Source: a virus
Length of the DNA: 31,623 bases
UHGV virus genome: UHGV-0098804
Reading direction: 5' to 3' (one strand)
Part shown: positions 4,477-30,549 of the stretch, one piece after another
How positions within the stretch are numbered: position 1 is the stretch's first letter
Layout: each line of letters begins with the position of its first letter
The notes under the pieces: generated by a model
The model's input: the letters and a program-made list of their open reading frames with translations, nothing else
What the model was told of the DNA's origin: nothing
The model's database searches: none
Program-made: the position numbers and the translations under genes

Positions 4477-4499
4477 CATTTGAAGGATCACACAGGGTT

Positions 4500-11023: not shown

Positions 11024-12721
11024 TCACTTTTTTTCGTTAACCTTGCCTGTCAGCATGTCGATAGCACCTTCTTTGGCACGAGTCAGACGCAGGCGGGCGA
11101 AATAATTCTCACCGTTGCGCGGGTGGACTTCGTTGATAGCACTACCCCAGAGAGTGGTGCGGTTAACGAGAGATGGATTGGTTTCGTGCACATACGGGAT
11201 TGCTGGGACCGCATCACCAGCGATCAGCCCGGCTTTACCGATGCCTTCACCGCGACCATAGAAATAAATGTCATCCAGACCTAAGTCATATCCCTGAGCC
11301 TTGAATTGCTCACACACAGGCTGCGGCACTTCGTAAATACGAATCGTGCCAAACAGGGTGCCGATGTACTGCACATACGGTGACTGAACGTAGCCCGGCG
11401 CGATTTGGAAGTGCTGTGGAGGCAGAGAACGCAGGAAGTTAGCTGCGTCACCACCTGCGAAGCCACCGCGAATACCTGTGGTCAGGGTGCGGTTTGCCAT
11501 TTCCTGAGACAGGGCGTTTACTGCGTGGCGCAGGAGGCCGACCCAGGACTCATAGTTTTGAGCTTCAGGCAGAGCCACATCAAATTCACGACCATAAACG
11601 GTATGGAATACCAGGGTGCGCAGACGCATGATGTCGGTTTCATGGGAGATCCAGTTCCGCATTGCGGAGAACTGAAGTGCCGCCAATTCAAGGCCGTGTT
11701 CACGGCTTAAATCGGAAGCGGACATTACGGTGTGTTCGGAAGCAATTACGTACTGAGACGGTCGAACTTCATACTTACGCATAGCCTGGTTGATTACCGG
11801 AATCAGGCTTGGATTGCGCTCGATGTTAATTTCGACCTGAACCGCAATTTCAGTCCCTTCTGCTGGCGCTTGAGTGAAGGTAATGTCGATGACACCAGTG
11901 TCATAAGCGACTTTTGCGGTAGCTGAGAATGCATTGCCTTTGCAGTCTTTATCATTGAAATAAAGGTTGCCATCGCCGTCGTCAACCTTGGACGGTTTGC
12001 GGTTGATAAGCAGCTTGTTATAACCAGCACGCAGCGGGCAGGACTGCCCCTCAAAATTTTGGATGTCGAACTGGAAAGTTTTGGTGCTACCGTCCCCTTT
12101 CGTGGAAAGGGTATACAGGCGCTTCATTTGAGAATAAACACCAGCGGACTGCATATTCAGTTCGTCACCTTGCTCGAAGGTGCCGAATTTTGTGCCTGCT
12201 ACGTTGACCAGTTCATAAATATTTGACTCATCACGATCACAAGGAACAAAAGTACAGGCATCACTGGTAGCAGCACCCAGAGAGGCAGGCAGAATTAGTG
12301 CAGCATATTGAGCAACTTTCATTACGCCGTCAGAGCTACGCATTGATTGCGCGACAGACTCAAACATTGCCTTGCCAGTGCCTACGTGTGTATCGCTGGC
12401 ACATTCAGTCATCAGGCGTTCAAGTGCCATGTGTGCGTTTGCCAGGATATCGCTTGCCGGGTAGTGACCATGCTGGCGCTTGTACTCATGCAGAGACATA
12501 GCCCACCCACCAGCGATCTGACGTGCAACCTCTGGATTTACGCCTTCAAACATAGCCTCCTTCTGGATAGCTTTATCCAGGTTCTCCATCATCGCTGCCT
12601 GATCAGCAATCATATTGCCCGCAGCATCGGTGGTCGGATCGACGGTCATAGCCATGACGCTTGCCGCCCGATTCATAATCTCGCGCTCGCGATCACGAGC
12701 TGGCTGAATGTTTTTATTCAC
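11024..12721 (-). CDS. Large virion protein (565 aa): candidate major capsid protein, GTG start
   Basis: Track ORF; first gene of the minus-strand structural run, followed by the Ig-like gene. Assignment by size and order only. Confidence 0.35.
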   Translation of the reverse strand: MNKNIQPARDREREIMNRAASVMAMTVDPTTDAAGNMIADQAAMMENLDKAIQKEAMFEGVNPEVARQIAGGWAMSLHEYKRQHGHYPASDILANAHMALERLMTECASDTHVGTGKAMFESVAQSMRSSDGVMKVAQYAALILPASLGAATSDACTFVPCDRDESNIYELVNVAGTKFGTFEQGDELNMQSAGVYSQMKRLYTLSTKGDGSTKTFQFDIQNFEGQSCPLRAGYNKLLINRKPSKVDDGDGNLYFNDKDCKGNAFSATAKVAYDTGVIDITFTQAPAEGTEIAVQVEINIERNPSLIPVINQAMRKYEVRPSQYVIASEHTVMSASDLSREHGLELAALQFSAMRNWISHETDIMRLRTLVFHTVYGREFDVALPEAQNYESWVGLLRHAVNALSQEMANRTLTTGIRGGFAGGDAANFLRSLPPQHFQIAPGYVQSPYVQYIGTLFGTIRIYEVPQPVCEQFKAQGYDLGLDDIYFYGRGEGIGKAGLIAGDAVPAIPYVHETNPSLVNRTTLWGSAINEVHPRNGENYFARLRLTRAKEGAIDMLTGKVNEKK

Positions 12722-12879
12722 GGTTAAGCCCTAAATTCGGGCGCGGCGTGAAGGTTCTTTTGACGCGCTAACAATACCAACTTTGTGATTTAGTCAATAG
12801 CATTAGTAAAATAAAATCTGTTAACACACGTGTTGTTATGTGGTTTAATTTTAATTTTCTAACACAAATCATTACGGTT

Positions 12880-13272
12880 ATGGCGTATCGGATCTTTGTT
12901 TCGTATAAAAATGGCGCGAAAAGCCACTCCCTGAACACAACGAGCCGCTTTCTTGTTGAGGCGCAACTGGCATCAATTCTTGCTGAAAGTGAGATACTCT
13001 CCCTCGCTGAACGAATCGTCATCCAGTTTTCTGGTAGAGATATTCTTAATGTCCCCGCCCTCACCCCGGCCTCCGAAGTCATGGAATCCATTAAATGGCC
13101 TGTATGTGGATGCCCGGCGAGAGTTGAAGAGCCGGTAACCGCTACGCTCTATATGCCGAAAGCAGTAAGAGACTGGCTTGCTGTGATTGGCAACGGGAAA
13201 GTCAGTGCTGGACTGCGAAAGTTAATTGAAATGGCAGATATTCCAGAGTTAAAAAACGCATGGCGACAATGA
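12880..13272 (+). CDS. Hypothetical protein (about 130 aa; track start 12838, ATG 12880 preferred)
   Basis: Track ORF 12838..13272; the first 14 codons lie in an AT-rich promoter-like region; stop overlaps the next ORF (ATGGCGACAATGA). Confidence 0.3.
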   Translation: MAYRIFVSYKNGAKSHSLNTTSRFLVEAQLASILAESEILSLAERIVIQFSGRDILNVPALTPASEVMESIKWPVCGCPARVEEPVTATLYMPKAVRDWLAVIGNGKVSAGLRKLIEMADIPELKNAWRQ

Positions 13273-13289
13273 GTAAACAGGGGGGCAAA

Positions 13290-13748
13290 ATGAGTCACGC
13301 GAATCCATCAAAAACACAATATCGCTTAATGCTGGCGATCGCGTCAGCTATACCAACCAGCCTGAATCCCCCTGCTGGCTATCCCGCTGTTGTTGATGAT
13401 TGTTTTCAGTATTACGGTGAAGACATTCTGGGACAGTCGAAAGCACTAAAACAGTTGTGCAAAGCCGGGATTCTTCACTGCATAGGCGATCCGGATGATT
13501 TTGTTGTCATGCTGGCAGATCGTGACTCTTTTCTGCTGTCCTGGAAAGCCGGGGCGCGCGAAGCGCGTTTGGGGAATGGCATTGGCTACATAGACTATAG
13601 CGATTGCCCGCTGGCATTTGCTGGTGGATATATGCATTGGCATGAGCGAAATAGAGGCCGTCAGCGTCAGTATCGCTTGAGTGACTTTAACGTCTGTCAC
13701 GGTTTCGAAGAAGCTGACAGCCAGGATATCTGGCTTCAGGAGCCGTGA
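13290..13748 (+). CDS. Hypothetical protein (about 152 aa)
   Basis: Track ORF 13260..13748; AGGGGGG sits 5 nt before the ATG at 13290 (MSHANPSK...), making that the likely start. Confidence 0.4.
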   Translation: MSHANPSKTQYRLMLAIASAIPTSLNPPAGYPAVVDDCFQYYGEDILGQSKALKQLCKAGILHCIGDPDDFVVMLADRDSFLLSWKAGAREARLGNGIGYIDYSDCPLAFAGGYMHWHERNRGRQRQYRLSDFNVCHGFEEADSQDIWLQEP

Positions 13749-14020
13749 TTACCCTTCCCTTCCCAAATCTCCCTATTCCTTTGGTTATTCAGTGCGTTTC
13801 GTTGGTTGCATTCATCGATCGTGCTGAATAACTGTTCAGTGTATGTTGGATACTTGTTTAACAGCACTGGCGTGTCCTCTGGCACCAGACAAGGGTAATA
13901 ATCAATCAGATTTGCCTGCGGCTTGCTGGTGGCTTCTACGGTAATTTTCACTGGCACGCTGGTTGATGGCTTTTGCCCGTTCCCGCTGCATCCTGATAAC
14001 GTCATCAGGCACACGCACAT
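13736..14020 (-). CDS. Candidate o-spanin (Rz1-like outer-membrane lipoprotein) starting inside the i-spanin gene
   Basis: Track ORF 13736..14068 in a different frame from 13902..14375. The internal Met gives MCVCLMTLSGCSG with an L-S-G-C lipobox; the overlapped architecture is classic Rz/Rz1. Confidence 0.5.
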   Translation of the reverse strand: MCVCLMTLSGCSGNGQKPSTSVPVKITVEATSKPQANLIDYYPCLVPEDTPVLLNKYPTYTEQLFSTIDECNQRNALNNQRNREIWEGKGNHGS

Positions 14021-14375
14021 CGTTAATCCCAGCACGGTGTAACGCAGTTTCAAGACGAGTGATTTCATTCTGGCTTTCCTCTCGTTGTTTGATTAGGTTG
14101 GCATTCAGTTCTGCTGTTTTGCGCTGGTACTCCTTTTCCAGTGCTTTAATTCTTTCGTTTTCGGTCAGCATGGCTGAGCGAGCGTTCTCACTTAACTGTA
14201 ATGCGGTAGAAAGCGTGTTGTTCGTGCTTTCCAGTTGTGATTTTGAGTCTTCAAGCGATCGGACATACCTGATGTGTTCGATAACTGCCGTCGTTGTTCG
14301 GTAAATTCCAGAAATGGCTAAAAGCGCAATTACAATCAAAATTATCTTTTTCAAAACCATCCTCTCCAGGTTCAT
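13902..14375 (-). CDS. Candidate i-spanin (Rz-like): N-terminal TM helix plus coiled-coil periplasmic domain
   Basis: N-terminal hydrophobic helix (LKKIILIVIALLAISGIY) followed by heptad-rich charged sequence; overlaps the lipoprotein ORF. Confidence 0.5.
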   Translation of the reverse strand: MNLERMVLKKIILIVIALLAISGIYRTTTAVIEHIRYVRSLEDSKSQLESTNNTLSTALQLSENARSAMLTENERIKALEKEYQRKTAELNANLIKQREESQNEITRLETALHRAGINDVRVPDDVIRMQRERAKAINQRASENYRRSHQQAAGKSD

Positions 14376-14430
14376 TTTTGGTGTTAAACATGTACCAATT
14401 TACATCCTTTTGTGTGCCTAAGTGGTGTTT

Positions 14431-15234
14431 CTATGGTTCCTTTTTGGTGTTCTTTTGGAGCGCATCGATAACGCCTTGTGGCATGATTAAACTGATTGCC
14501 GGACTCATTACTGCATCATCCAGTAGAGAACCAGTTAACGTGATGGCGACAGCGTTCTCTAAACCTTTGGTTGCCTGAGTGGTTGACGTTTTAATGCGAC
14601 CTGTAAGGGCTACGACACCCTCACTTGCTGAGTTAATTTCGGAGAGTAAAACTTCGGCGGCTGTCACTGCTTCCCGTAAAGCATCAATTTCATCCTGAGT
14701 AATGTCCGGAGCCTGTGTTGCCCCTCCACCAGCCTGTCCACCATCACTATCACCACCAGCACTCCCGGCAGCTTCAATTTTTGCGTTTATGGCGTTCATG
14801 GCGGTATTCAGATCGTCAAGTTTCAGCGCCGCCAATGCGTCCGTTAATGATTGCGGCATGGAAACATTCCCCATCCCCTCTACCAGGGCGAACGCTGGCG
14901 CGGGGATCAGTTCATTACCTTTTGCGTGGCACTCCCAGCCAATCTTCATCTGTAACAACTCTGATGGCGTGGTGTATGGGGAAAGAGAGTCAGCCAGTGA
15001 TGAAGAAGACTTGCTGGCCTCATTGAGCTGTTCGGAAAATCCAAGCAATTGAGTCGTCCAGGCCGACACTGAATCAGGATAGGTTTTATCAGGGTGAACC
15101 ATTTCCTGTATTGCGCTCGCGAGTGACGAGGCTTTTGAAGAAGCCCCCCGGCTTATGGTTATTGATTCCGGTGTGGAGGCACCAGCACCAGACAGAATTT
15201 GGAAGGCTTTAACTTCACCTATTGAATCAAGCAT
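14431..15234 (-). CDS. Hypothetical protein (267 aa) coupled to the PAAR-like gene
   Basis: Track ORF; start overlaps the upstream stop (TAATG). Ala/Ser/Gly-rich; no family recognised. Confidence 0.45.
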   Translation of the reverse strand: MLDSIGEVKAFQILSGAGASTPESITISRGASSKASSLASAIQEMVHPDKTYPDSVSAWTTQLLGFSEQLNEASKSSSSLADSLSPYTTPSELLQMKIGWECHAKGNELIPAPAFALVEGMGNVSMPQSLTDALAALKLDDLNTAMNAINAKIEAAGSAGGDSDGGQAGGGATQAPDITQDEIDALREAVTAAEVLLSEINSASEGVVALTGRIKTSTTQATKGLENAVAITLTGSLLDDAVMSPAISLIMPQGVIDALQKNTKKEP

Positions 15235-15518
15235 TATGCGACCTGAAAAATATCCTCGCCGTTAGCGATAACAGAACCACAAGAAAGCGGATCGCCTACG
15301 CAGACTACTCCCTTTCCACCTATTGAATACCATGCCCGTGTCGATACAGCCGATCCGGGATGTGCACTGTTGCCATCTGTATGGCTGGGAAACATGGCAC
15401 CATCCACAACAACTGGCTTACCGTTGACGGTGAACCAGGGAACGGTTTCAGCTACCAGTCGCGGCGGAAATCCTCCGTGACCGGAACAAAGTGTGTCGCT
15501 GGTGGCTATTGCGCTCAT
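15234..15518 (-). CDS. PAAR-like spike-tip protein (94 aa)
   Basis: AGGAG SD 9 nt upstream. Motifs CSGHGG, VNGKPVVVDGA and GDPLSCGSVIANG resemble PAAR-repeat proteins such as T4 gp5.4 and T6SS PAAR (from memory). Confidence 0.55.
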   Translation of the reverse strand: MSAIATSDTLCSGHGGFPPRLVAETVPWFTVNGKPVVVDGAMFPSHTDGNSAHPGSAVSTRAWYSIGGKGVVCVGDPLSCGSVIANGEDIFQVA

Positions 15519-15611
15519 TCTTCATCTCCTGGTTATTCGCCTATTGTCATCACTTTGTTATTTCGTCACTCAAAGAGAGAGTGAAATCACGGAACATTTA
15601 CAATTCCCGTT

Positions 15612-15644
15612 TTGTTCTCAAATTGTTCTCAAATTGTTCTCGCT
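15612..15644 (+). repeat. parC-like tandem 11-bp repeats (ttgttctcaaa x2.7) upstream of parM; more ttctcaaa copies at about 15677 and 15763
   Basis: Direct repeats seen in sequence; in type II partition loci ParR binds tandem repeats flanking the parM promoter. Confidence 0.5.
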
Positions 15645-15795
15645 TCTATCCAAGTGCCCAGCAGGCGATTAAAGATATTCTCAAAACAACCTCAATTATG
15701 ACTCTTATTTATCTCTAATTATGTGGATTTTCGATGCCTTCTCTTTTAAAATCATGATTTGATTCTCAAATGTGTCTCAGAAGTGGAGCAAGAAG

Positions 15796-16752
15796 ATGCG
15801 CATTTTTATCGATGATGGTTCAACCAATATCAAAATGCTGTGGGAGCACGACGGGGAAACTCGCACTCACATCAGCCCTAACAGCTTTAAGCGCGGATGG
15901 TCAGCAACATTTGGTGCTGGCAAGCCGTTTAACTATGTCATTGACGACGAAAAGTATTCGTATGATTTGATCTCGCCAGATGTTCTGCCGACAAATAACG
16001 TGGAATGGCAATACAGCCCGCTTAACGTTCTTGCTGTGCATCATGCTTTGTTGACCAGTGGTATTGAGCCGCAAGAAGTAGAAATTGTGGTTACACTGCC
16101 ACTGGCAGAGTTTTACGACGACGATGCGCAATACAATCTCGCTAATATTGAGCGCAAAAAAGCCAGCCTGATGCGCCCTGTCACGCTGAATAAAGGCAAT
16201 GTATTCACAATTAAGAAAGTTACGGTACGACCGGAGTCTATTCCGGCAGGAATTGGCCTGTGCGACAATCTGAACCCTGCCCATTCTGTTCTTATCGTCG
16301 ATTTGGGTGGAACTACCCTTGATGTTTCAATGGTCGCCGGGCAAATGACGGCAGTTTCCCGTGTTTTTGGCGATTCGAATCTTGGTGTATCACTGGTCAC
16401 CAGGGAAGTAAGGCAAGCACTTGCCAGAGCCAATACCGAAACGTCAAATTACAATGTCGATCAGCTTATTATTAACCGCCACGATGAAGAATATCTGAAC
16501 GACAATATCAATGATCCATCCGCTATTGGTGATGTGAAAAAGGCTATTAGTACAAGCATTGACCGCCTGCGTACTCGCGTTCTTGATGTAATTAGCGACT
16601 TTAAAGGGTATACGCATGTCATGGTGATCGGCGGTGGCGCGCCGCTGGTGGCTGATGCAATTCGCGAGCACGTTAACATTCGTGATGATCGTTTCTTTGT
16701 GGCAGATGATCCGCAACTTGCTCTTGTTCATGGTCTGAAGGCTATCGGTTAA
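15796..16752 (+). CDS. parM: Actin-like plasmid segregation ATPase ParM/StbA
   Basis: Track ORF 15772..16752; ATG at 15796 with GGAG upstream preferred. MRIFIDDGSTNIKMLW...HISPNSFKRGW closely resembles the R1 ParM N-terminus as I recall it. Confidence 0.85.
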   Translation: MRIFIDDGSTNIKMLWEHDGETRTHISPNSFKRGWSATFGAGKPFNYVIDDEKYSYDLISPDVLPTNNVEWQYSPLNVLAVHHALLTSGIEPQEVEIVVTLPLAEFYDDDAQYNLANIERKKASLMRPVTLNKGNVFTIKKVTVRPESIPAGIGLCDNLNPAHSVLIVDLGGTTLDVSMVAGQMTAVSRVFGDSNLGVSLVTREVRQALARANTETSNYNVDQLIINRHDEEYLNDNINDPSAIGDVKKAISTSIDRLRTRVLDVISDFKGYTHVMVIGGGAPLVADAIREHVNIRDDRFFVADDPQLALVHGLKAIG

Positions 16753-16758
16753 CGAGGT

Positions 16759-17103
16759 GTGTCCATGCCCCAGGAACGTAAGAAAGTGATGATTTATCTT
16801 CGCCCGGAGGCTTATGCCAATGAAAAAGCCGCGAGTGAAAAGATAAAAAAACATAGCGATATGGCAAGAACTGCGCTTTTAGCTGGCCTTGCGCTGGGAG
16901 AAGTCGATAGTCGGCTGCCGGGATTGCTCGCCTCTCTTCTGACAAAAGAGAGTAACCCAGAGCTGATCCGGGGAATGCTGGCCTCGTTTCTGGAAGTGCC
17001 TGCTGCGACAGAGGAGCGCCCTGCTTCTGTAGCGCCGGGTAAAGAGCAGGTCGTTGTCGAAAGTGTGTCTGCGCGGAACCTGGCTAATTCTCTACCTGAT
17101 TGA
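16759..17103 (+). CDS. parR: ParR/StbB-like centromere-binding adaptor
   Basis: Immediately downstream of parM; ALLAGLAL...LLASLLTKE matches the recalled R1 ParR motif ALTAGLAL...LLCELLTKE. Confidence 0.8.
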   Translation: MSMPQERKKVMIYLRPEAYANEKAASEKIKKHSDMARTALLAGLALGEVDSRLPGLLASLLTKESNPELIRGMLASFLEVPAATEERPASVAPGKEQVVVESVSARNLANSLPD

Positions 17104-17149
17104 CAGCGAATGCGTTCTTGAAAGGCTGCAAATTGCAGCCTTTTTTGTA

Positions 17150-17340
17150 CCGCTTTAACACCAATTTGGTACCAATTTTACACCATATATGAGCCGCTTA
17201 TGTACTGGTGCATAAATGGTGCTGGTTTGGTGCTTTCCAGGTATAAACGTGTACCGGTATATTGGGGATTTGCTGCTATACTGGCAATATTGAGGATTGT
17301 GCCGTTATTGCACCGAAACGGTACCAAAGAGGTACCTTTT
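17150..17340. repeat. Repeat-rich intergenic region (multiple GGTACC / ccaattt / ggtgct motifs): candidate centromere and promoter for the ParA-type system
   Basis: Visible repeated short motifs (ccaatttggtaccaatttt; ggtgctggtttggtgct; acggtaccaaagaggtacc) upstream of the ParA-like gene. Confidence 0.3.
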
Positions 17341-17380
17341 CAGTGTTAAAGTGATGCTAAAACAACACCGAGGAAAGGAC

Positions 17381-18022
17381 ATGATTATCCTGGTAGCAAG
17401 TCAAAAGGGAGGCTGTGGCAAGTCAACCACCAGCGTCAATATTTGTGCCGAGCTGGCCCGAAAAAACAAAGATGTCGTCTTGATTGATGCTGATAAGCAG
17501 GGAACGGCAGCTCGATGGGCGTCAGACCGTAATTCGTCCGAAGTGACACCAGTTATTCATTGCGTCCAGAAGTTTGGAAATATTCGAGAAACTCTGCTCG
17601 ATCTTAACAATCGATATGAATACGTGGTTGTTGATACCGCAGGTCGTGATAGTAAAGAGATGCGCACAGGTATAACGGCGGCGGATATTCTATTGGTTCC
17701 ATTCAGGCCGTCTCAGCCAGATTTGGACACGCTGGCACACTTTGTTGAGGTGTTTGAAGAGGCTTTGGATCTGATGCCTAATCCCAATATTAAGGCGTGC
17801 GCAGTCTTAACTATGGCCCCGGCAAATCCGGTTGTGAATGAAGCAAATGAGGCCAAAGAGTATCTGGCAGAATATCCGCAACTGAAATTGCTGAAAACCA
17901 TTATTCGCGATCGCAAGGTTTACCGCGACTGCATGGCTGAAGGAAAGGGTGTTGTTGAGATGGATAACGGTAAGGCGAAAGGTGAAATTCAGATGTTAGT
18001 TAAGGAGTTGCTAAGTGATTAA
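17381..18022 (+). CDS. parA: ParA/ParF-family partition ATPase (Walker-type, about 213 aa)
   Basis: Track ORF 17297..18022; ATG at 17381 follows AGGAAAGGAC. Deviant Walker A KGGCGKST near the N-terminus. Confidence 0.8.
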   Translation: MIILVASQKGGCGKSTTSVNICAELARKNKDVVLIDADKQGTAARWASDRNSSEVTPVIHCVQKFGNIRETLLDLNNRYEYVVVDTAGRDSKEMRTGITAADILLVPFRPSQPDLDTLAHFVEVFEEALDLMPNPNIKACAVLTMAPANPVVNEANEAKEYLAEYPQLKLLKTIIRDRKVYRDCMAEGKGVVEMDNGKAKGEIQMLVKELLSD

Positions 18023-18299
18023 ACGTCGAGAACCAGCTAAAGCGCCTAAGGCTACTGATCCGGAACTTGAGCGAAGAATTGAAGAGTTCGCCAGCAAAGC
18101 GGATTTAATCCCGGATGAAATTACAAAGGGGAAGGTGCTTGATAAAGATGCGCCGCGCGACTTTAAATCCATACGCGTGAGCTTTAATGAATATGAGTAC
18201 GGGGTGCTCGATGCGTTAGGCAAAAAGCTTAACCGCAGCAAATTGAACCTGATTCGACATGCCATCCTCATGCTTGCTGAGTCAGAGGATGCTAAATGA
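18015..18299 (+). CDS. Small partition partner protein (ParG/ParB-like), GTG start overlapping the parA stop
   Basis: 8-bp overlap with the parA stop (GTGATTAA); small basic protein in the position expected for a type Ib centromere-binding protein. Confidence 0.5.
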   Translation: MIKRREPAKAPKATDPELERRIEEFASKADLIPDEITKGKVLDKDAPRDFKSIRVSFNEYEYGVLDALGKKLNRSKLNLIRHAILMLAESEDAK

Positions 18300-18420
18300 T
18301 ACCGATTTGATGCCTTATTGGCGTCTATCGTGTACCAGTGCAATAATGGTGTCAAAGTGGCGCCATAATGGTGTTAATATACAGCCATATTGATATCAAA
18401 TTGACACTGTATCGGCATCA

Positions 18421-18446
18421 AAAAGCCCCAGGCGGGGCTTTTTCTA
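18421..18446. terminator. Bidirectional rho-independent terminator between the par operon and the dam operon
   Basis: aaaaagcccc aggc ggggcttttt: GC stem flanked by an A-run and a T-run; overlaps the dam stop codon. Confidence 0.6.
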
Positions 18447-19349
18447 TTTGAGCGTTGCAATGATATCGTTAGCGACTATTCGCGTGGATGCTTTGCATGA
18501 CACGGACCGCCTGGCTGGCATGTGGTACAGCTTAAAACCGTTTCTTTCGTACAATTCGCGAATTTTTGGCGCGCCACTGTTTGTTATTACTATCTTTGCA
18601 CCGCGCTGGTGGGCCGCCACCAACAGTGATACAAGCCGTTTTTGTTCATCGAAAAGGAAGCTATTTCCTGAATAGCTGGTAAATCCCTCTGTATCTGGCA
18701 GCGGCTCATACGGCGGATCACAAAAAATCACATCGTCTTCACCAGCCGCCTCGATGACACCAGCAAAGTCACCTGATACAAAGGAAGTGTTTTTGAGTAC
18801 GTCATCAGCCAAAAATGCCTCCATCTCTGCATGTGGGAAGTAGGGCGCTTTGTATTTGCCATACCCCACGTTGAACTCGCCATTTTGGTTGTACCGCGTT
18901 ACGCCATTAAAACAGTGACGATTAAGGTACAAAAATGCGGCAGCATGATGTAGCTGGTCATATTTTCCTCTGTTAAATGCCTCACGCACTTCGAGGTAAG
19001 CGTCAGCGTTGTTGTAATTTTTGAAAAAACTATATGACAGCGTGACGAGCGAATGTCCTTCTCGCTGCAATGTCTGATAGAAGTTAATCAGGTCACCGTT
19101 AATATCATTAAGCAGGTTTTGGCGAAATCCTGCATTCGTAAATACGGAACCGCCACCAACGAATGGTTCTATTAACCGCTTACCGTGTGGTAGATGCTCA
19201 AGCACTGTAGGCAATTCTGAGAATTTACCACCTACCCATTTGAATATCGGACGCTCATATTCATCCGGAGTCCGAATGGTGCGCATATAGCTAATTTCAG
19301 CCATCGTATCCTGTTTTTCTATGGCTATGCTTGCTATAGATTTACTCAT
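18444..19349 (-). CDS. dam: DNA adenine methyltransferase (Dam-like, N6-adenine, DPPY motif)
   Basis: FKWVGGK...EPFVGGGSVF...LYLNR...CDPPY align with E. coli Dam motifs (recalled). Preferred start is the ATG at 19349 (MSKSIA), which overlaps the upstream stop by 8 bp; the track start 19445 would overlap the upstream gene by about 100 bp. Confidence 0.85.
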   Translation of the reverse strand: MSKSIASIAIEKQDTMAEISYMRTIRTPDEYERPIFKWVGGKFSELPTVLEHLPHGKRLIEPFVGGGSVFTNAGFRQNLLNDINGDLINFYQTLQREGHSLVTLSYSFFKNYNNADAYLEVREAFNRGKYDQLHHAAAFLYLNRHCFNGVTRYNQNGEFNVGYGKYKAPYFPHAEMEAFLADDVLKNTSFVSGDFAGVIEAAGEDDVIFCDPPYEPLPDTEGFTSYSGNSFLFDEQKRLVSLLVAAHQRGAKIVITNSGAPKIRELYERNGFKLYHMPARRSVSCKASTRIVANDIIATLK

Positions 19350-20022
19350 AGAGCACCCCCTTATTCGCTTCGAAAACTGCCTTTGCGAATCCATGTGGAG
19401 TAGCACTTCGAAAATTAGCCCTGTCAGGCCCTGGTGGCGCGGCATGGATTCTGTTATCTGGCTTGCCTAATGATTCGTCCATTAGGGCATCAGGCATGAC
19501 AAAGCCCTGGCCGCTCCAGAGGCATGTTTTTTTGGTGTAGTTATCTTCCTGACAATATGCAGTGAAGAAGTAAGGGTGAAAGATGTGATCTGGCTTACGC
19601 CAGAATGTCGATATTTTGCTGACCGGATTTTCAATCATGTACGGACAACCGATCATCTTTGCAATGTCATAACACTGCCAGACAACCTGCATTGCTTTGA
19701 ACTGGAAAACCGGATCTTTATTAGCCTTGTCTGAAAACCAGCGCGCGCCGGAAACAGCCAGGTCAGTACACGGTGGGAACCCGGCCAGAAACACGATGCG
19801 CTGCAAATTCTTACGGAGAAAAGCGTATACTTCATCGCTATCGATGATCGCACTAATACGCGTCAGAACGGCACCTGATTGCATCCGCTCGTCACTGGTC
19901 GATAAGTGCTGTGGATCGACGATAGCGGCATCGACACCGTATTCCAGCCAGGGGGCAACCATTGCCCCCGTAAAATCACAAAGACTCACAACAAGCGGTC
20001 GGTTATTATCGTTCTGCTTCAC
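19342..20022 (-). CDS. Short C5-cytosine-methyltransferase-like protein (about 227 aa)
   Basis: [14 protein letters not shown] resembles C5-MTase motif IV (PCQ) and MIENPV resembles motif VI (ENV); weak motif-I-like LCDFTGA. GTG start at 20022 has GGAGG 10 nt upstream and overlaps the rdgC stop; the track ATG at 20094 would lie 88 bp inside rdgC. Confidence 0.45.
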
Positions 20023-20911
20023 CGCCAATGGCCTCCACCAGCGCGTTAAACAGTGCAGATAATTCGCCCGTAAAGAGCACGAAATCAGCATCAAATCGTT
20101 GTGCTACATCCTCCCGGTCGATATCGTCGTTCTGGTCATAGAGATCATCACAGAATGTCAGGGCTTTGATACTCATATCATCGTTGACTTTGAACGACGC
20201 GCGGTCCATCCAGTTAATTGCAACGGTCGTAGCTACTTTCCCCGCCTCAATGTGAGACATAATCTCGTCGGACTGTAGATCAACTTTGTTGCAGCGAACG
20301 GCACCACCATTATCGAGCAGACCCTTTAATGTGGCGTCTTCACCTGCTGTAAATCCGGCAGGGAAGCCGTTTTTAAACCACTCGGTCATTGTAATTTCCA
20401 GCGGTTCGCGTGGTGTGAATGGAATGACAGGCAGGCTGCCGAGCGATTTTCGCAATAAAGCCAGCTGGTCCTCTGCTTTTTTGGCGCTGCTTGCCTCAAC
20501 GAATACCAGATGGTTGCTGCGGTCGATCAGGATTTTTGCGAGTGATTTTCTCGTGAAAGCACGAGGAAGAAGAGAGTGAAGCACTTCATCCTTCAGCGAA
20601 TCTTTTTCGGTCTTCTTCAGCTTTCTGTCTTGCTCTTCTTCAAGTTTCAGGATTTTTTTCTGTAACTCTTCTTTGAGTACTTGAGAAGGCAGGATTTTTT
20701 CCTCTCGTTTATGCTGCATCAGAAGAAAACCCTGGTATTCATGGGTGAGGTTGTCGCCAAGAATTGGGGTCCAACCAGCTTTAGCCATATCCTGAGAACC
20801 GCATGGGGTAAACACAAACTTGCTAAGGGCTGCATTTACTTCTGCAGTATCCCAGCTAACTTCGCGTGAAAGACGATAGATGAAGATATTTTTGAAAGCG
20901 ACTGATCTCAT
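20006..20911 (-). CDS. rdgC: Recombination-associated protein RdgC homologue
   Basis: Near-colinear similarity to E. coli RdgC as recalled (FKNxxxYRLSRExS, [31 protein letters not shown], [15 protein letters not shown]). Confidence 0.85.
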
Positions 20912-20917
20912 GTCTCA

Positions 20918-20961
20918 CCATTTATGTTAGAAAATACACATTAATTATCTAACACAAATGG
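20918..20961. promoter_or_regulatory. Operator-like imperfect inverted repeat (ccatttatgttagaaaa ... ttatctaacacaaatgg) in the 60-bp gap upstream of rdgC
   Basis: Two arms of about 17 bp around a central acacattaatt; a matching half-site (ttttctaacacaaatca) occurs at 12853-12869 upstream of the capsid-like gene. Confidence 0.4.
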
Positions 20962-20970
20962 GTGCATTTT

Positions 20971-21624
20971 CTATCCTTTCTTGAAATCGAAGTTGCCAGC
21001 AGTGGCCTGAAAGGTTCCCCCTGCCTTGAAAGCTATGTTTCCGTTAGCGGTGACAGCAATATTTTCCCCATTAACATTGATGTTGTTGGCTGATTTGACG
21101 TTAACACTCCCTCCTGCATTCACGATTACATCAGCCGGACCAATGATATATATCTGCCCGGACTCATTCATGCCAATCCTTGAGCCTGCTGCCGTATTGG
21201 CAATTTCATAGCCGCCACCAGCAGTTCGTACTTCAAGAATATTGTTGCGGTGAATAACGAAGTCTTTCGTTGCTGAGATTTGGGGGCGGGGAGGTGCTCC
21301 ATCTACTTCCGGCGGCGTCCAGCCGCTACCATTGCCTGACGCCTCCGGCGCGACGTTTGGAACTCCGCCAGGCGCATCCTGAGCTGCGCCAACTATCATT
21401 GGGCGTCTGGTGTCTATTCGACCGTTAACATCTAAATAAGGAAACTCTACCCAGACAAGGTCACCTTTGACTGTAGGTACAAAAGCGTTCCCGATGGGTA
21501 ACAGGTATTCCGCCCAGGGTAGATCGTCATCAGGAACGCCATTCCAGTCAGGTAAAACACGGACTTGAGCACGCATAAGCCCTGCCGGGTGCACAGTTCC
21601 AACAATTTGCGCTCTACGCTTCAT
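20971..21624 (-). CDS. Baseplate central spike protein (gpV / gp5-like)
   Basis: N-terminal pattern (GTVHPAGLMRAQVRV...LPWAEYLLPIGN...KGDLVWVEF) resembles baseplate assembly protein V; C-terminus is a Gly/Asn/Val repeat typical of a beta-helix spike. Confidence 0.5.
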   Translation of the reverse strand: MKRRAQIVGTVHPAGLMRAQVRVLPDWNGVPDDDLPWAEYLLPIGNAFVPTVKGDLVWVEFPYLDVNGRIDTRRPMIVGAAQDAPGGVPNVAPEASGNGSGWTPPEVDGAPPRPQISATKDFVIHRNNILEVRTAGGGYEIANTAAGSRIGMNESGQIYIIGPADVIVNAGGSVNVKSANNINVNGENIAVTANGNIAFKAGGTFQATAGNFDFKKG

Positions 21625-22601
21625 TTGTTAGGCACTCCCAATATCATTCGTGTTGTGTAGCCTACTCGGTCCTCAAAGTGCGCAACATTTTTTACTATCA
21701 GCTTACGGGGCATTGATTCATCAATGCGGTTTTCCTGGTCATAGCGGTATACGATAATCTCTATTACCATCCCCGGTTTTATATCAGGATTGCCTGCGAC
21801 TTCTATATCCATTTTGGGGACGAGAGACAGCTGCATATTGCGAAGAGTTTCCATATCAGAGTCGGATATATAACGCACTGGGAGTGAGCTATCGCCATAT
21901 TCGACGTAGCCATCGGTCATGGAATACCCAACAAAACGATATTGATTCTTTGCTGTTGTCGCATGTTCCTGTTGGAGTAGGCGCATTTTGGACAAAGTGT
22001 ATTCTGCTTTAGGGTTATTCCCCTCGTAGGTAAATGATGGCGTTTGCTTCATCAGATCATCCAGGGTGTAAAAGTTAAATTCCCCCCGGCATACCCAACA
22101 TAATGCACCTTTGTCTCGCGCTATCTCCGAAAGCATTTTTGACGGTTTGTCACCGGCATTCAGATGATATGTAACTGCGCGTTTTAGCACGCTGCTGGTA
22201 ATTTTAAGCTTGCCGGAATATGCCTTGAATATAGCGTCTGGTGTTTTGTTGGTATGTAAATTTGTGCGCGGGGAGGGGATCTTAAACCTGCGCACGTCTT
22301 CACTGACAGCAATAACGGTAACAACATCACCAGCCAGCATTGCAGACGTAACAAAGAAATCTGTTTTAAAAGTGCCTGCATTACCGTTTGGATCGCCCAT
22401 TTCAGCCACCAGCGATGCACCGTATTTGGCTTTCCAGTCATCAATTACGGTGCCGGTAGCGTCATGAATTTCCAGTTTTAGCAAAGGGGCTTTGAGGCTG
22501 GTTTTTTCTACATATACTGCGGTAAAAATCCAGTCTCGTGGCACTTTGTTATCGTTAATGAGCACTGACTGTAGAAAATATTGTTGTAACTCCTGGGCCA
22601 C
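21621..22601 (-). CDS. Hypothetical baseplate-associated protein (326 aa)
   Basis: Track ORF; 4-bp overlap with the downstream spike gene; no family recognised. Confidence 0.45.
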   Translation of the reverse strand: MAQELQQYFLQSVLINDNKVPRDWIFTAVYVEKTSLKAPLLKLEIHDATGTVIDDWKAKYGASLVAEMGDPNGNAGTFKTDFFVTSAMLAGDVVTVIAVSEDVRRFKIPSPRTNLHTNKTPDAIFKAYSGKLKITSSVLKRAVTYHLNAGDKPSKMLSEIARDKGALCWVCRGEFNFYTLDDLMKQTPSFTYEGNNPKAEYTLSKMRLLQQEHATTAKNQYRFVGYSMTDGYVEYGDSSLPVRYISDSDMETLRNMQLSLVPKMDIEVAGNPDIKPGMVIEIIVYRYDQENRIDESMPRKLIVKNVAHFEDRVGYTTRMILGVPNK

Positions 22602-25312: not shown

Positions 25313-26041
25313 ATGATGTCAGAAAAAGTTACAGATAATCCGTCTATAAATGAAACAGAACTAAAATCATTTTCTGAAATAATAAAAGATAAAATATTTA
25401 ACAAGGTTTTTGCATATGTTGTCATTTCTTTTCTAATTTTTAACTGGAAGGATATTTTAATTATATTAAAGTCAAAGGACGACATCCTATATACATTATC
25501 TATTGTTTTTGTTGGTGGTAATGTCCCGTTCTTTGATAATTGGATTGTATCCCCGTGGGTTTATCACGTTGTAATCCCATTTGTTTATGGAGTATTTGCA
25601 TCTGTGTTAGCTCCTATTCTCACACTGAAGATATCTAAGCTAACAAGTAAATTATACACTGAAATAAGATATTTGGATGAAGTTGCTGATTATGATAAAA
25701 GAATAGAATTGCAAAGAAAGAAAACAAAGTTAAATCAAGCAACCAATGACGCTAAATATTCAAAACAAATCTTAGATGAAAATGAAAATAAACTTAATGA
25801 CCTAGCTAAGAAACAGCGAGAAATTTGTGGCGCGATAAAACTATTGCATACTGATGTTGGCAGTATTATTGAGCTATATAAAAATAAGGGGGTTAGCATT
25901 GAATCTCCGCAAGATTTATGTGATTTTATAGTCGCTATAAAAAGCACATCATTCTATAATGATGACAAGCATTTTAATAAATTGGTGTCTGATATTTCCA
26001 GTTTGTTTGATAATACTGGAATTGATCTTTCAAAAAAATGA
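25313..26041 (+). CDS. AT-rich accessory gene: multi-pass membrane N-terminus plus C-terminal coiled coil (242 aa), function unknown
   Basis: Track ORF with AGGA SD. Composition is visibly far more AT-rich than the flanks. Hydrophobic segments (FAYVVISFLIFNW; LSIVFVGGNVPFF; VVIPFVYGVFASVLAPILTL) then a charged heptad-like region. Confidence 0.6.
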   Translation: MMSEKVTDNPSINETELKSFSEIIKDKIFNKVFAYVVISFLIFNWKDILIILKSKDDILYTLSIVFVGGNVPFFDNWIVSPWVYHVVIPFVYGVFASVLAPILTLKISKLTSKLYTEIRYLDEVADYDKRIELQRKKTKLNQATNDAKYSKQILDENENKLNDLAKKQREICGAIKLLHTDVGSIIELYKNKGVSIESPQDLCDFIVAIKSTSFYNDDKHFNKLVSDISSLFDNTGIDLSKK

Positions 26042-27682: not shown

Positions 27683-27976
27683 TTATGCGTGGAAAAATAA
27701 TGGACGGATGTTTGGGCGAGTGGTTTGCGAAGCAACCCAAAGCTCATACTGGGATTGCATACCGGTCCACATTTCGGCACTGGTTCCAAGAGCGGACTCC
27801 AGACGAAGTGCCATATCAGCAGATATACCTGCTTTTTCATTCAGAATTCGGGAAAGCGCCGTGCGAGTAATGCCTAATGCCGCAGCGGCGTCTGTGACTG
27901 ACATGTCTCCCAAATATTCACGAAGAACCGCGCCTGGATGCGCGGGATTATGCATACGACTCATAGTGTTCCTCAA
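27683..27976 (-). CDS. higA: HigA-like antitoxin (second copy, XRE HTH)
   Basis: [18 protein letters not shown]...[38 protein letters not shown] is the canonical HigA pattern; 4-bp overlap with the upstream toxin gene. Confidence 0.8.
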
Positions 27977-28254
27977 TGATAATCCTGATAGTCAACTAGA
28001 ATTGCGTCTTCTCCTTCAAATCGGAAGGTAAGTCGCCAGTTACCGTTTACCGATATTGCCCAGTGACCTTTAAGGTCCGCCCCCTTTAGAGGGTGCAATT
28101 CCCATCCAGGCGCAGACATATCGTCCGGGCGTTTAGCTGTATTAAGCGCAGTCAATTGAATGCGTAGCTTAACCGCATGTTTGGCCTGAATGCCTGCGGT
28201 TGAACCTGTCTTGAAAAAGCGTTCAAGCCCTTTATGGCGAAATGACTTAATCAA
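27973..28254 (-). CDS. higB: HigB/RelE-like toxin (second copy); probable TTG start giving [14 protein letters not shown]...
   Basis: [13 protein letters not shown]...[43 protein letters not shown] matches the HigB/RelE toxin pattern. Track ATG at 28317 adds 21 atypical residues; a TTG at 28254 with GGA upstream restores the conserved N-terminus. Start uncertain. Confidence 0.7.
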
Positions 28255-28590
28255 AATAATTCCATTCGTGCGTGCAACCTGTGTATATACGCTACACGCA
28301 GAAAGAGTAAAATGCAAGCACTATCCGTATAGACAGAGTTTTTTCGCCACCCTGGAATTTATTGACTGTCAACAAGTGACTTTCATTAATCTTAAGGCGT
28401 GGACCAGCTCGATAGTGAGCTGGGTGTTATTTACCGATCGAATGGATTCGAAAAGATGAATATTTTTAATAAGCTGATTGATTTATTGAATAAATTCATT
28501 AGTGCTTCTTTAACTCAGCAGGTATCCACGTCAGTGTTTTTGTTACTCTTCTACCTGGTATTGAGGGAGTTAACAAAGCTACTAATGTGA

Positions 28591-29512: not shown

Positions 29513-30136
29513 ATGAAGGACGGTGTAGTGAAGTTAAGGGTTTTAGGGACCGCGCTCGCGGCTATGTTGGGATGCGTATCTGTTAATACAGCCAATGCAA
29601 CTGCGTTACCTGCACAATTCAGGGCAGGGCAGCAGGTTATGAATAACGCTGGTGGGGATCATTCACAAGCGGCAATTATGGACTTTTGCAAGAGAGAGGG
29701 CATTCCATTACGGCCTGTTGGAACTCAGTTTATTGGTAAAACTGACTTTTGCGTTTTTGCATATACAGCATATCTGACGGACAAAGCTATAACAAAAACA
29801 GGTTATTCAACCAAAGATACTCTTTCCAGATTAAGTCAGGGATGGCAGCAATTCGAAGTGTATCGCCAGCAAGGATTAGGTGAGTTATTACAACCACTTT
29901 TTATGCTTGCGCTGGTGCCCGAGGGGCAGCAATTTTTGGTTAAAAAGGGAATGCTTCGCCAAAGTGATATTGCCGGGTTCGATAGCATGATGGCTTATGA
30001 GCGCAAACTAACCGAGCAGCGAAATAAAAAACCATCTGCTTCATGTGTGCAAAGTAAAACAGCAGAATACAGTGCAGTAGCCGGGCCTTTAGCCAAACAA
30101 ATGGCAGAGCAATGGTGTAAAAAATACGGGCAATAA
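29513..30136 (+). CDS. Predicted exported protein (207 aa) with N-terminal signal peptide
   Basis: Track ORF; hydrophobic N-terminus LRVLGTALAAMLGCVSVNTANA with an AxA-like cleavage site; AT-rich promoter-like region upstream. Confidence 0.55.
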   Translation: MKDGVVKLRVLGTALAAMLGCVSVNTANATALPAQFRAGQQVMNNAGGDHSQAAIMDFCKREGIPLRPVGTQFIGKTDFCVFAYTAYLTDKAITKTGYSTKDTLSRLSQGWQQFEVYRQQGLGELLQPLFMLALVPEGQQFLVKKGMLRQSDIAGFDSMMAYERKLTEQRNKKPSASCVQSKTAEYSAVAGPLAKQMAEQWCKKYGQ

Positions 30137-30156
30137 GTTACGCAGCGGAGGCAGAA

Positions 30157-30549
30157 TTGAAAAGATTGGCTATTGCTTTACTGGCGTCTTTCCCTTTGAT
30201 CGCGAGCGCCGGAAATTTACAAGTTAAGTGCGGTCGGTTTGATATAAAAATCTATCCGGATGCCATATTTCTGAATGGGAATAAGGTTGATAACGCACAC
30301 CGAAAAACTGAATCTGACGTAATGAGCTATGTGTTCCAGGAGTATGCGGAGATGGGGGGAACTTACACGCTGTACTCGCTGGATGTTCCTTCTCGCGGTG
30401 ATATGACATTATCCCATCAATGGCAGAACGCCGATGGCGAAGCTCTGCGCGAGGTTAAAACAGAAAAATGTGGCACTTTCCATTCTTTTAAAGGGAAAGC
30501 GCCAAATGTTAAATCTGTGCTTGAAAAACAGCGCGCAGGTGAGCTTTAA
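30157..30549 (+). CDS. Predicted small exported protein (130 aa) with signal peptide
   Basis: MKRLAIALLASFPLIASA signal peptide; GGAGG SD at about 30146; 20 bp downstream of the previous gene. Confidence 0.6.
   Translation: MKRLAIALLASFPLIASAGNLQVKCGRFDIKIYPDAIFLNGNKVDNAHRKTESDVMSYVFQEYAEMGGTYTLYSLDVPSRGDMTLSHQWQNADGEALREVKTEKCGTFHSFKGKAPNVKSVLEKQRAGEL

Follow-up and report, generated by a model that had tools for sequence, protein, structure and literature searches.

In virions of phage P1, cryo-EM places a trimeric gp5 in the central spike, with a monomeric UpfC capping its blunt end and a trimeric UpfB "tripod" anchored at the tip (PMC12810830; bioRxiv 10.1101/2025.07.21.665459); gp6 is named as the baseplate hub in the same description (PMC12810830), and plaques are unimpaired when upfC is deleted (PMC9024508). 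The P1 genome (NC_005856) has the order upfB-upfC ... 5-6-24-7-25-26, and between upfC (64779 to 65063) and gene 5 (73704 to 74336) lies a gap of 8.6 kb. This gap contains rdgC (hrdC) and dam (dmt), along with uhr, three tRNAs, plp, upl, tciABC, ban, and dbn; it holds no par genes, parAB-repA being located between gene 23 and upfA. The D6-like plasmid prophages constitute P1 subgroup 2 (Pfeifer et al. 2021, PMC7969092), and D6 itself (MF356679/NC_050154) has the order upfB-upfC, parM-stbB-parA-orf61, dam-MTase-rdgC, and 5-6-24-7, with its upfC-like orf57 and gene 5-like orf66 7.3 kb apart. In phage T4, a trimeric OB-fold and beta-helix spike, gp5, additionally carries a lysozyme domain, and the ~95-aa monomeric PAAR tip, gp5.4, has a His3-Cys metal site and is dispensable for laboratory plaque formation; gene 5.4 lies almost next to gene 5 (PMC12407873). 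P2 gpV, Mu gp45, and the R2 pyocin spike are small OB-fold and beta-helix proteins whose fused apex bears an HxH iron site, and no PAAR protein is needed.

The window, by which we mean the entire 31,623-nt stretch of the virus genome UHGV-0098804 that was analyzed, belongs to a D6-like (P1 subgroup 2) phage-plasmid from Escherichia coli and its relatives. It shows 95% nucleotide identity to Escherichia phage D6, with 89% of a 12-kb query covered, and is 92 to 98% identical to ~100 enterobacterial plasmids, in all of which the order of spike and tip genes is unchanged; 100 of the 124 plasmid matches to the 12-kb query are co-linear over at least 80%. RefSeq annotation likewise gives the order unchanged, under the labels "PAAR domain-containing protein" and "baseplate protein". 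Co-linear homology with both D6 and P1 runs across structural and maintenance genes, placing the element among the P1/D6-like phage-plasmids, and the P1 proteins are 47 to 56% identical to those of the window. As in D6, a Rep3-type repA is located apart from the par genes. Unlike D6, the window lacks orf72 and glnS and has, upstream of gene 26, a second pair of higBA genes.

The spike gene (20971 to 21624, minus strand) codes for a 217-aa protein of the P1 gp5 type with a predicted gpV/VgrG-like OB fold followed by a beta-helix. It matches PHROG 430 ("baseplate hub"; E = 1.3e-44) and the "Gp5" chain of the P1 baseplate (PDB chain 9vzk_q; E = 5e-56). Foldseek searches with its AlphaFold model (pLDDT 84.5) recovered the same P1 chain as the best hit (E = 8e-21 over 216 columns), followed by the VgrG/Afp8/Pvc8 spikes, the R2 pyocin spike, and P2 gpV (3qr8, E = 1e-3), with further matches to 4s37 (E = 3e-4) and 9ki1_V among the small spikes of similar size. 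The PF04717 (OB fold) profile found no match at E < 0.01 in the window spike taken alone; P1 gp5 scores 21 bits and distant spike homologs score 29.8 to 30.1 bits against a cut-off of 23.8, and the assignment is present in precomputed form for many spike homologs. The predicted N-terminal OB fold is confirmed by the beta-barrel in the model together with the spike matches in Foldseek. A C-terminal beta-helix is likewise predicted, as is a trimeric state: the C terminus matches DUF2345 (VgrG C terminus; E = 0.002), and a profile of spike alignment A1 matches the beta-helix regions of VgrG and gp5 (E = 4.6e-6 to 4e-3). The protein ends in GNFDFKKG, with no HxH near the C terminus, and it contains no lysozyme domain. 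Since a spike without an HxH apex is of the blunt, tip-requiring type, a separate tip is expected, and in this respect the protein is gp5/VgrG-like rather than strictly gpV-like, as it had been called. Directly upstream of it in the tail operon 26-25-7-24-6-5 lies the P1 gp6-like baseplate hub gene (21621 to 22601, minus strand; phrog_1390, E = 1.9e-144), corresponding to D6 orf67 and P1 gene 6.

The candidate for this tip is a 94-aa PAAR-repeat protein of the P1 UpfC/T4 gp5.4 type (15234 to 15518, minus strand). It matches PHROG 281 ("PAAR motif"; E = 2.6e-29) and, over residues 1 to 93, P1 UpfC in PDB chain 9vyi_A (E = 8.1e-36), a protein with which it shares 56% identity along its entire length. 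Weaker matches were obtained to 9f4b_BA (E = 4.4e-7), to T4 gp5.4 (5iv5_ZA, E = 1e-5; 4ku0_D, E = 2e-5), and to the type VI secretion PAAR protein 4jiv_D (E = 0.011), while the NCBIfam model T6SS_PAAR_dom (NF033420) is matched at E = 1e-8, far under its equivalog cut-off. With PF05488, whose gathering score is 27, the window tip reaches 26.7 bits, P1 UpfC reaches 26.0, and a Vibrio homolog passes with 38.8. PAAR tips bind metal at the apex of the cone through three histidines and one cysteine (PMC12407873). A corresponding site is predicted in the window tip from H14 (SGHGG), H46 (SHTD), H53 (AHPG), and C80 (SCGS), which are retained in the window, P1, Xenorhabdus, and L095 tips and align with the GH, HT, HgG, and SCG motifs of 9f4b_BA (gp5.4-type tips). 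Its 56% identity to P1 UpfC suggests that the window protein would similarly cap its own spike. Directly downstream of the PAAR gene is an UpfB-like gene (14431 to 15234, minus strand; phrog_1559, E = 1.6e-101) whose product is 25% identical to P1 UpfB (E = 3e-20); the two are probably cotranscribed. No promoter was found for this upfC-upfB pair; the region lacks the late-promoter motif of P1, and scanning it for sigma-70 promoters and terminators gave results no better than chance. The sequence-only reading, which had assigned a spike and a PAAR-like cap to these two open reading frames 5.5 kb apart, was correct on both proteins and on their spacing, and the two frames lie at precisely the coordinates it gave.

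The intervening 5,452 nt (15519 to 20970) contain parMR, a small parA with a partner, dam, a second methylase gene, and rdgC, as had also been recognized from the sequence; profile matches bear out the list. On the side of the tip gene, upfC and parM diverge from a 253-nt region that holds parC-like iterons (15604 to 15778; repeat families D1 and D2), with TTCTCAAATTG repeats at an 11-nt period at 15604 to 15641 and further copies at 15677 to 15685 and 15762 to 15778. Lying ahead of parM as R1 parC does, they may be the centromere. They are followed on the plus strand by genes for a ParM/StbA actin-like partition ATPase (15772 to 16752; PF06406, E = 1.7e-69; PF21523, E = 3.3e-56) and a StbB/ParR-type adaptor (16759 to 17103; PF10784, E = 2.5e-11; phrog_8671, E = 1.3e-52). 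The ParM and StbB profiles, with three to four iterons of 11-nt period ahead of parM, point to a type II (ParMRC) system. The second par system, a candidate for type Ib in which no centromere was recognized, comprises a small ParA-family ATPase (17297 to 18022, plus strand; NF041546, E = 1.2e-47, 162 bits against a cut-off of 180; phrog_164, E = 6e-58) and a 94-aa partner (18015 to 18299, plus strand; D6 orf61; phrog_9169, E = 2e-48). The partner has no Pfam, NCBIfam, or PDB match and, from its position, is possibly the centromere-binding protein. Immediately beyond lies a cargo slot and recombination breakpoint (18298 to 18443), where the window has 138 nt and D6 has 1,972 nt with glnS. The window is a mosaic relative to D6 in BLASTN comparisons, being 91.4% identical left of 18297 and 98.1% identical right of 18436, and this jump coincides exactly with the point of glnS presence or absence. 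Inside the slot, between the convergent par and dam operons, a predicted bidirectional terminator hairpin (18420 to 18443), AAAAAGCCCC-AGGC-GGGGCUUUUU, folds on both strands.

On the side of the spike gene, three genes are encoded on the minus strand. The first is a Dam-type D12 N6-adenine DNA methyltransferase (18444 to 19445; PF02086, E = 1e-55), which corresponds to the C-terminal half of P1 dmt and is 68% identical to the C-terminal part of Dmt; the open reading frame overlaps the next gene, so that the real start is probably downstream of 19445. In phage P1, methylation of the pac site by the phage Dam allows packaging to begin. The remaining two are a second DNA methyltransferase-like gene (19342 to 20094; D6 orf64; phrog_757, E = 3.4e-78), which has no Pfam match, and the gene for the recombination-associated RdgC (20006 to 20911; PF04381, E = 8.8e-103), 52% identical to P1 HrdC. 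The 59-nt spacer from the spike stop codon to the rdgC start holds a conserved palindrome (20920 to 20959) formed by two inverted copies of ATTTGTGTTAGAnAATTAA, of which the window has three copies against 0.01 expected; a half-site also occurs upstream of ref in D6. Across 14 D6-type variants the dyad is retained, 6 of its pairs being compensatory, and in P1 the C1 operator Odmt lies directly upstream of uhr-hrdC-dmt. The palindrome is probably a C1-type operator for the rdgC-methylase operon; it could instead act as an RNA hairpin, and the covariation of the dyad fits both. Terminator searches in the interval from the spike gene to rdgC gave no hit.

A synteny comparison, which the sequence-only reading had proposed as a check on a local insertion, showed the same split with rdgC and Dam in D6 and in P1, and P7 also has it; relatives with this separation are what that reading had named as evidence against itself. 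Among loci holding both genes, 71 of 72 are split by 1,870 to 9,690 nt (the median for the full set of 72 is 6.3 kb), although these loci do not count as independent, several being near-identical or representing one element present in two collections. They come from Escherichia, Salmonella, Citrobacter, Enterobacter, Pantoea, Rosenbergiella, Serratia, Erwinia, Buttiauxella, and Xenorhabdus. RdgC is encoded in the gap of 69 of the 71 split loci, the other two having an N6/N4 methylase (L095) or a ParA-like gene (L099). D6-type gaps fall into size classes of 5.45, 7.29, and 8.0 to 8.3 kb, and in gene content the gap of the window differs from that of D6 only by glnS. The minimal gap, in Xenorhabdus (L010 and L097), consists of rdgC and dam only, all co-oriented with the spike gene, and the end of dam is 8 nt from the PAAR start by TBLASTN coordinates. 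In every locus that is not of the P1 type, rdgC and dam run in the same direction as the spike gene, beginning 43 to 390 nt past its stop codon; in P1 this cassette is inverted and adjoins upfC, with the methylases fused into one Dmt protein.

More distant relatives, with spikes 31 to 39% identical to the window gp5, have other arrangements. In a Vibrio clade (L022 and L113 to L117), the only one found with a separate but adjacent PAAR gene, spike, PAAR, and UpfB genes are contiguous, and the PAAR gene starts 7 nt past the spike stop codon. In other distant groups the tip is fused to the spike, which ends in HHSH (L025 and L027 to L029) or GVVTG.H.C.FTG.PHSD, and capsid and sheath genes directly follow; rdgC and dam are absent from that position in three distant groups besides the Vibrio clade. 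That spike and PAAR cap normally sit together in contractile-tail modules, as had been assumed, is too strong a statement. We infer that spike, tip, and UpfB genes were once contiguous and that DNA was inserted in the ancestor of the Enterobacterales P1/D6 clade rather than in this element, a direction given by parsimony with the Vibrio, Desulfovibrio, and other loci taken as outgroups by identity levels alone. The proposal of accessory DNA within a tail module can be kept for that ancestor, where the Vibrio order argues for it; for the element at hand the split is an old, clade-defining arrangement, and lineage-level cargo is limited to the par cassettes together with the glnS slot.

A recent, element-specific insertion of a maintenance and DNA metabolism block into an intact tail module would account for par genes on the strand opposite to the flanking tail genes, for gap content that differs among lineages, and for a recombination breakpoint inside the gap. 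It is nevertheless highly improbable, given that D6, P1, P7, and 71 of the 72 related loci, drawn from about ten genera, share the split, that the GC content of the gap (0.44 to 0.50) does not differ from that of the flanking DNA, and that 100 of the 124 matching plasmids are co-linear along the 12-kb query. The converse history, in which the ancestral P1-like structural module as a whole was already split and the gap was lost secondarily by deletion in the Vibrio clade, draws on the frequency of deletions in phage genomes and on the restriction of the adjacent PAAR gene to that clade. We regard it as unlikely in view of the three further distant groups without rdgC and dam after the spike, where capsid and sheath genes come next and tips are fused, of the near contiguity of T4 genes 5 and 5.4, and of the Xenorhabdus arrangement, in which rdgC and dam between spike and PAAR genes resemble a small cassette in an operon.

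The co-orientation and closeness of rdgC and dam to the spike gene in all non-P1-type loci, together with the missing spike-rdgC terminator, make it conceivable, if somewhat doubtful, that they belong to the late program and are cotranscribed with the spike gene, only the par genes being foreign to the module. An operator-like conserved palindrome exactly at the spike/rdgC junction and the inverted P1 cassette, driven by the C1-controlled promoter Pdmt, speak against this possibility, which in part overlaps our preferred account rather than excluding it. The distance would lose its meaning altogether if the PAAR-like gene were a moron or a type VI secretion-type accessory and not a virion part: PHROG 281 carries the category "moron, auxiliary metabolic gene and host takeover", PF05488 falls 0.3 bits under its gathering score, and P1 UpfC is dispensable for plaques and was undetected in virions by mass spectrometry. 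There is very little to recommend this, as the protein is 56% identical to a P1 UpfC modeled at the gp5 spike tip (9vyi), is homologous to T4 gp5.4, and accompanies a spike without an HxH apex.

We favor, with a probability of roughly 85%, a D6-like element with a two-unit spike device, a clade-ancestral split, and a later cargo slot. The membrane-piercing device would be encoded by two separate transcription units: the spike gene as the last of the tail/baseplate operon, and the UpfC-like tip with UpfB as a small unit of its own, followed by a spanin pair. A gp5 trimer would sit on the gp6 hub, one UpfC monomer would cap the blunt end of its beta-helix, and UpfB trimers would be placed on the tip; since these parts assemble as proteins, after translation, adjacency of their genes is not required. 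The two gap blocks would be under different control, with two partition systems on the opposite strand serving the plasmid state and an rdgC-methylase-dam operon extending from the palindrome past the spike gene to the bidirectional terminator. The split most likely arose by capture of an rdgC cassette, with or without dam, between contiguous ancestral spike and tip genes. The site would then have become a long-lived cargo and recombination slot, acquiring par cassettes and a variably present glnS in the D6 lineage and uhr, tRNAs, tciABC, ban, and dbn, plus the rdgC-dam inversion, in P1. The order of the genes and the roles of the proteins have been published before, and the separation of spike and tip is an ordinary finding: it is the standard gene order of the P1/D6 family.

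The spike gene (20971 to 21624, minus strand; 217 aa) and the tip gene (15234 to 15518, minus strand; 94 aa) encode, respectively, a spike of the gp5/VgrG type and a tip of the PAAR family. The spike protein matched PHROG 430 (E = 1.3e-44) and PDB chain 9vzk_q, the P1 "Gp5" (E = 5e-56; 47% identity to P1 gp5), and its profile also reached VgrG, Afp8, and T4 gp5 (17 homologues). An AlphaFold model of this protein (pLDDT 84.5) recovered P1 gp5 as the closest structure (E = 8e-21), followed by central spikes from other contractile injection systems and by those of the R2 pyocin, P2 (gpV), and Mu (gp45). It contains no lysozyme domain, and the HxH motif sought near its C terminus is absent, which makes it a spike of the blunt-ended type that needs a separate tip (PMC12407873). 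The tip protein was recovered with PHROG 281 ("PAAR motif"; E = 2.6e-29) and NCBIfam T6SS_PAAR_dom (E = 1e-8) and scored just below threshold against Pfam PF05488 (26.7 bits; cutoff, 27). PDB chain 9vyi_A (UpfC) matches it end to end (E = 8e-36; 56% identity to P1 UpfC), and T4 gp5.4 is a further match (E = 1e-5). Its H14, H46, H53, and C80 align with conserved positions of gp5.4-type tips, in which these three histidines and one cysteine make a metal site (PMC12407873).

Within the intervening 5,452 nt are genes for ParM and StbB/ParR, for a small ParA and its 94-aa partner, for RdgC, and for two methylases, one of them a D12 Dam enzyme. The ORF table and the profile and PDB matches bore out the gene calls and coordinates of the spike, tip, and intervening genes in every particular. 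For the ORF after parA (18015 to 18299), the 94-aa partner, Pfam, NCBIfam, and PDB searches gave no relative. A 12-kb query spanning this region shares 95% identity with Escherichia phage D6 and 92 to 98% with 124 plasmids from Escherichia, Salmonella, Shigella, Klebsiella, and Enterobacter, 100 of which are co-linear with it over at least 80% of its length. The top plasmid match, E. coli p1_000837, has the same gene order in its RefSeq annotation, with labels including "PAAR domain-containing protein," parM, rdgC, and "baseplate protein." The element thus belongs to the D6-like group. The second subgroup of P1-like phage-plasmids, of which D6 is the type member, has its partition genes apart from its replication genes and variable gene clusters between conserved blocks (PMC7969092). 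The window agrees with the former trait, as its Rep3-type initiator gene (4467 to 5255, opposite strand; PF01051, 3.4e-29), situated between the tail genes pmgB and tub, is >10 kb from the partition genes. The GenBank record of D6, which together with citing papers was the source for that phage, labels the two genes "similar to P1 gene upfC" and "similar to P1 gene 5"; they are 7.3 kb apart, with the same intervening genes as in the window plus glnS. In P1, upfC (64779 to 65063) and gene 5 (73704 to 74336) are 8.6 kb apart and flank uhr, hrdC (rdgC), dmt (dam), three tRNA genes, plp, upl, tciABC, ban, and dbn; the arrangement in P7 is similar. The window gap, unlike that of P1, is devoid of tRNA genes, and searches for tRNA genes and Rfam families over all of the window returned nothing. 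The split arrangement has already been published for P1 and D6 and is also present in RefSeq plasmid annotations.

To survey this arrangement, spike-gene relatives and 10 kb on either side of them were collected from one genome per species and from IMG/VR, and the window proteins were mapped onto them with TBLASTN. The IMG/VR search with the spike alignment gave only close relatives among its best 80 hits, and the use of a Vibrio protein as the query recovered more distant ones. Both genes were captured in 72 loci, with spike identities ranging from 47% to 100% and hosts including Citrobacter, Enterobacter, Pantoea, Rosenbergiella, Serratia, Buttiauxella, Xenorhabdus, and Escherichia. The genes are split by 1,870 to 9,690 nt in 71 of these (median over all 72, 6.3 kb), a count that overstates independence, since some loci are near-identical or represent one element in two collections. 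An rdgC homologue lies in the gap of 69 of the 71 split loci, usually with dam after it. The minimal gap, found in two Xenorhabdus loci (L010 and L097), consists only of rdgC and dam, tightly packed and in the orientation of the spike gene; in P1-type loci this cassette is inverted, and ParM, StbB, and ParA are encoded in the gap only in D6-type loci and a few neighboring lineages. In one IMG/VR contig (L095; spike, 52% identical), the gap lacks rdgC and dam and instead encodes a 430-aa N6/N4 DNA methylase (11339 to 12631; PF01555, 1.8e-17), so that a methylase is found between the spike and tip genes even there. The sequence-only reading had implied that the separation is a notable feature of this element; as every close and moderately distant relative, D6 and P1 included, shares it, this view is not supported.

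More distant relatives (spike, 31 to 39% identical to that of the window; capsid and sheath, about 27 to 35%; compare 47% and 42 to 44%, respectively, for P1) have no such gap, although the general order 26-25-(7)-24-6-5 ... 23-22 is retained. In a Vibrio clade (L022 and L113 to L117), a 94-aa PAAR ORF (38.8 bits on PF05488) begins 7 nt past the spike stop codon and is followed by a 252- to 255-aa ORF with weak homology to UpfB (24% identity; E = 9e-6). Other distant groups have a longer spike with a C terminus of HHSH, the HxH motif found at the apex of spikes like P2 gpV, or GVVTG.H.C.FTG.PHSD, and their capsid gene lies within about 1 kb after the spike gene; judging from these sequences, such groups carry tips fused to the spike. 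A Xenorhabdus bakwenae plasmid (L026) has a weak PAAR-like ORF (13195 to 13479; E = 5.5e-6) on the opposite strand, 2.5 kb downstream of the spike gene and past a relE/higA pair, and the C terminus of its spike resembles that of a fused tip. Since the distant relatives are contiguous or fused, parsimony would place a contiguous or fused spike-tip unit at the root. We infer that a cassette of rdgC, with or without dam, was inserted at the base of the Enterobacterales P1/D6 clade, so that the insertion of DNA between spike and tip probably happened long ago. Accordingly, the proposal that accessory DNA entered a once-contiguous tail unit is supported at a deep evolutionary level, as seen in the Vibrio contiguity and the fused tips, but not as an event in this element.

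One place where the gap content differs is 18298 to 18435, where the window has 138 nt and D6 has 1,972 nt with the glutaminyl-tRNA synthetase gene glnS (L001, 19303 to 21274). D6 and most of the listed relatives carry glnS at this point, and the glnS-less 5.45-kb gap is common to at least eight related loci. Many IMG/VR contigs stop just beyond dam; these ends are perhaps assembly breaks at glnS, which has a chromosomal copy. Identity to D6 is 91.4% over the 18 kb left of 18297 and 98.1% over the 6.8 kb right of 18436, a change that points to a recombination breakpoint at the glnS position and to different recent histories of the tip and spike sides of the gap. Here the par genes (plus strand) and the dam operon (minus strand) converge on a GC-rich hairpin (18420 to 18443) with flanking A and U runs, which folds on either strand and is a predicted bidirectional terminator. 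A generic sigma-70 and terminator scan of 13600 to 21700 found sites no more often than in shuffled sequence, and it overlooked this clear hairpin, which was confirmed by folding. The 253-nt intergenic region between upfC (minus strand) and parM (plus strand) contains three to four repeats with an 11-nt period (TTCTCAAATTG) and isolated copies thereof, fitting a candidate parC-type centromere and promoter region. A P1 late-promoter motif derived from LP23 and LP26 (a −22 box, AAnTGACTn, 4 nt, and TAnAAT) was also scanned for throughout the window; its sole site is near 28374, with none upstream of upfC, gene 26, or the capsid gene, and neither this nor the sigma-70 scan found a promoter for upfC-upfB.

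Between the stop codon of the spike gene and the start of rdgC, a palindrome (20920 to 20959) built of two inverted copies of ATTTGTGTTAGAnAATTAA takes up nearly all of the 59-nt spacer. The window has three occurrences of the motif where 0.01 would be expected, and the dyad is kept in 14 D6-type variants, with compensatory changes at six positions. The palindrome could work as an RNA hairpin instead of a DNA site. A single half-site is present at 12851 to 12869, near the capsid gene, and another upstream of ref in D6, the place equivalent to that of the C1 operator Oref of P1. The P1 record likewise has a C1-repressor operator, Odmt, upstream of uhr-hrdC-dmt, at the place equivalent to the window palindrome. 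The excess of the motif, the conservation of the dyad, and the placement of Odmt and Oref together favor an operator, and we regard the palindrome as a candidate C1-type repressor operator of the rdgC-methylase-dam operon.

Cryo-electron microscopy of P1 shows a gp5 spike trimer on the gp6 hub, a single UpfC monomer at the spike tip, and UpfB trimers (the "tripod") anchored at the tip (PMC12810830; bioRxiv 10.1101/2025.07.21.665459). The window UpfB-like protein (14431 to 15234, minus strand) is 25% identical to that of P1. As this assembly takes place at the protein level, adjacency of the genes is not required. Further, P1 plaque formation does not need UpfC (PMC9024508), and T4 gp5.4 is dispensable in the laboratory, yet it contributes to fitness and is important on hosts with truncated LPS (PMC12407873); such dispensability may explain why selection tolerates a tip gene away from the tail operon. 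The gap genes would serve other phases of the life cycle, with the par systems acting in plasmid inheritance and RdgC and the methylases probably acting early after derepression.

Other parts of the window also differ from P1 or D6. Between tail genes 7 and 25, the segment 24323 to 26041 holds a higB/higA toxin-antitoxin pair (PF05015, 4.4e-35; HTH_3) and an AT-rich ORF (25313 to 26041; GC down to 0.33). In P1, genes 26-25-7-24-6-5 are contiguous, whereas D6 shares the interruption and has an extra higA; relative to P1, this block is a clearer case of accessory DNA in the tail operon than is the spike/tip split. In the segment 27651 to 28528, upstream of gene 26, are a second higB (27973 to 28317, minus strand) and an HTH antitoxin gene (27683 to 27976, minus strand), where D6 has about 200 nt with two tiny ORFs. 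Right after upfB, at 13736 to 14375, two ORFs overlapping in different frames (13902 to 14375 and 13736 to 14068, both minus strand) match Rz-like spanin families (phrog_214, 2.2e-15; phrog_456, 7.5e-5) and occupy the position of P1 ppfA/mlp. About 1 kb (29571 to 30586) has no D6 counterpart; a simB-like gene is at the equivalent place in D6.

With the order published, and with work between 2022 and 2026 having established what gp5, UpfC, and UpfB do in the P1 spike, the split matters little as a discovery. Given that the structural genes of P1/D6-type elements are scattered, a tip gene distant from its spike gene should not be taken as a sign of a defective or rearranged prophage. One point is mildly new, namely, the view of the junction as a slot for cargo throughout the clade that began with rdgC-dam, which is consistent with the variable regions between conserved phage-plasmid blocks (PMC7969092). 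We give roughly even odds to the full form of this reading: the spike/tip junction of Enterobacterales P1-like phage-plasmids would be a long-lived cargo and recombination slot, seeded when an rdgC-dam cassette was captured in a once-contiguous spike-PAAR-UpfB operon and shielded from the tail operon by the palindrome acting as a conserved operator, in which lineages swap partition systems, a tRNA synthetase gene, a helicase gene, tRNAs, and methylases without harm to virion assembly. The turnover of cargo in this interval (par systems, glnS, and methylases, with ban and tRNAs in P1) bears on the typing of these plasmids and on the tracing of their recombination. If the reading is true, the junction would be a predictable site for finding or engineering cargo in the P1-like family.
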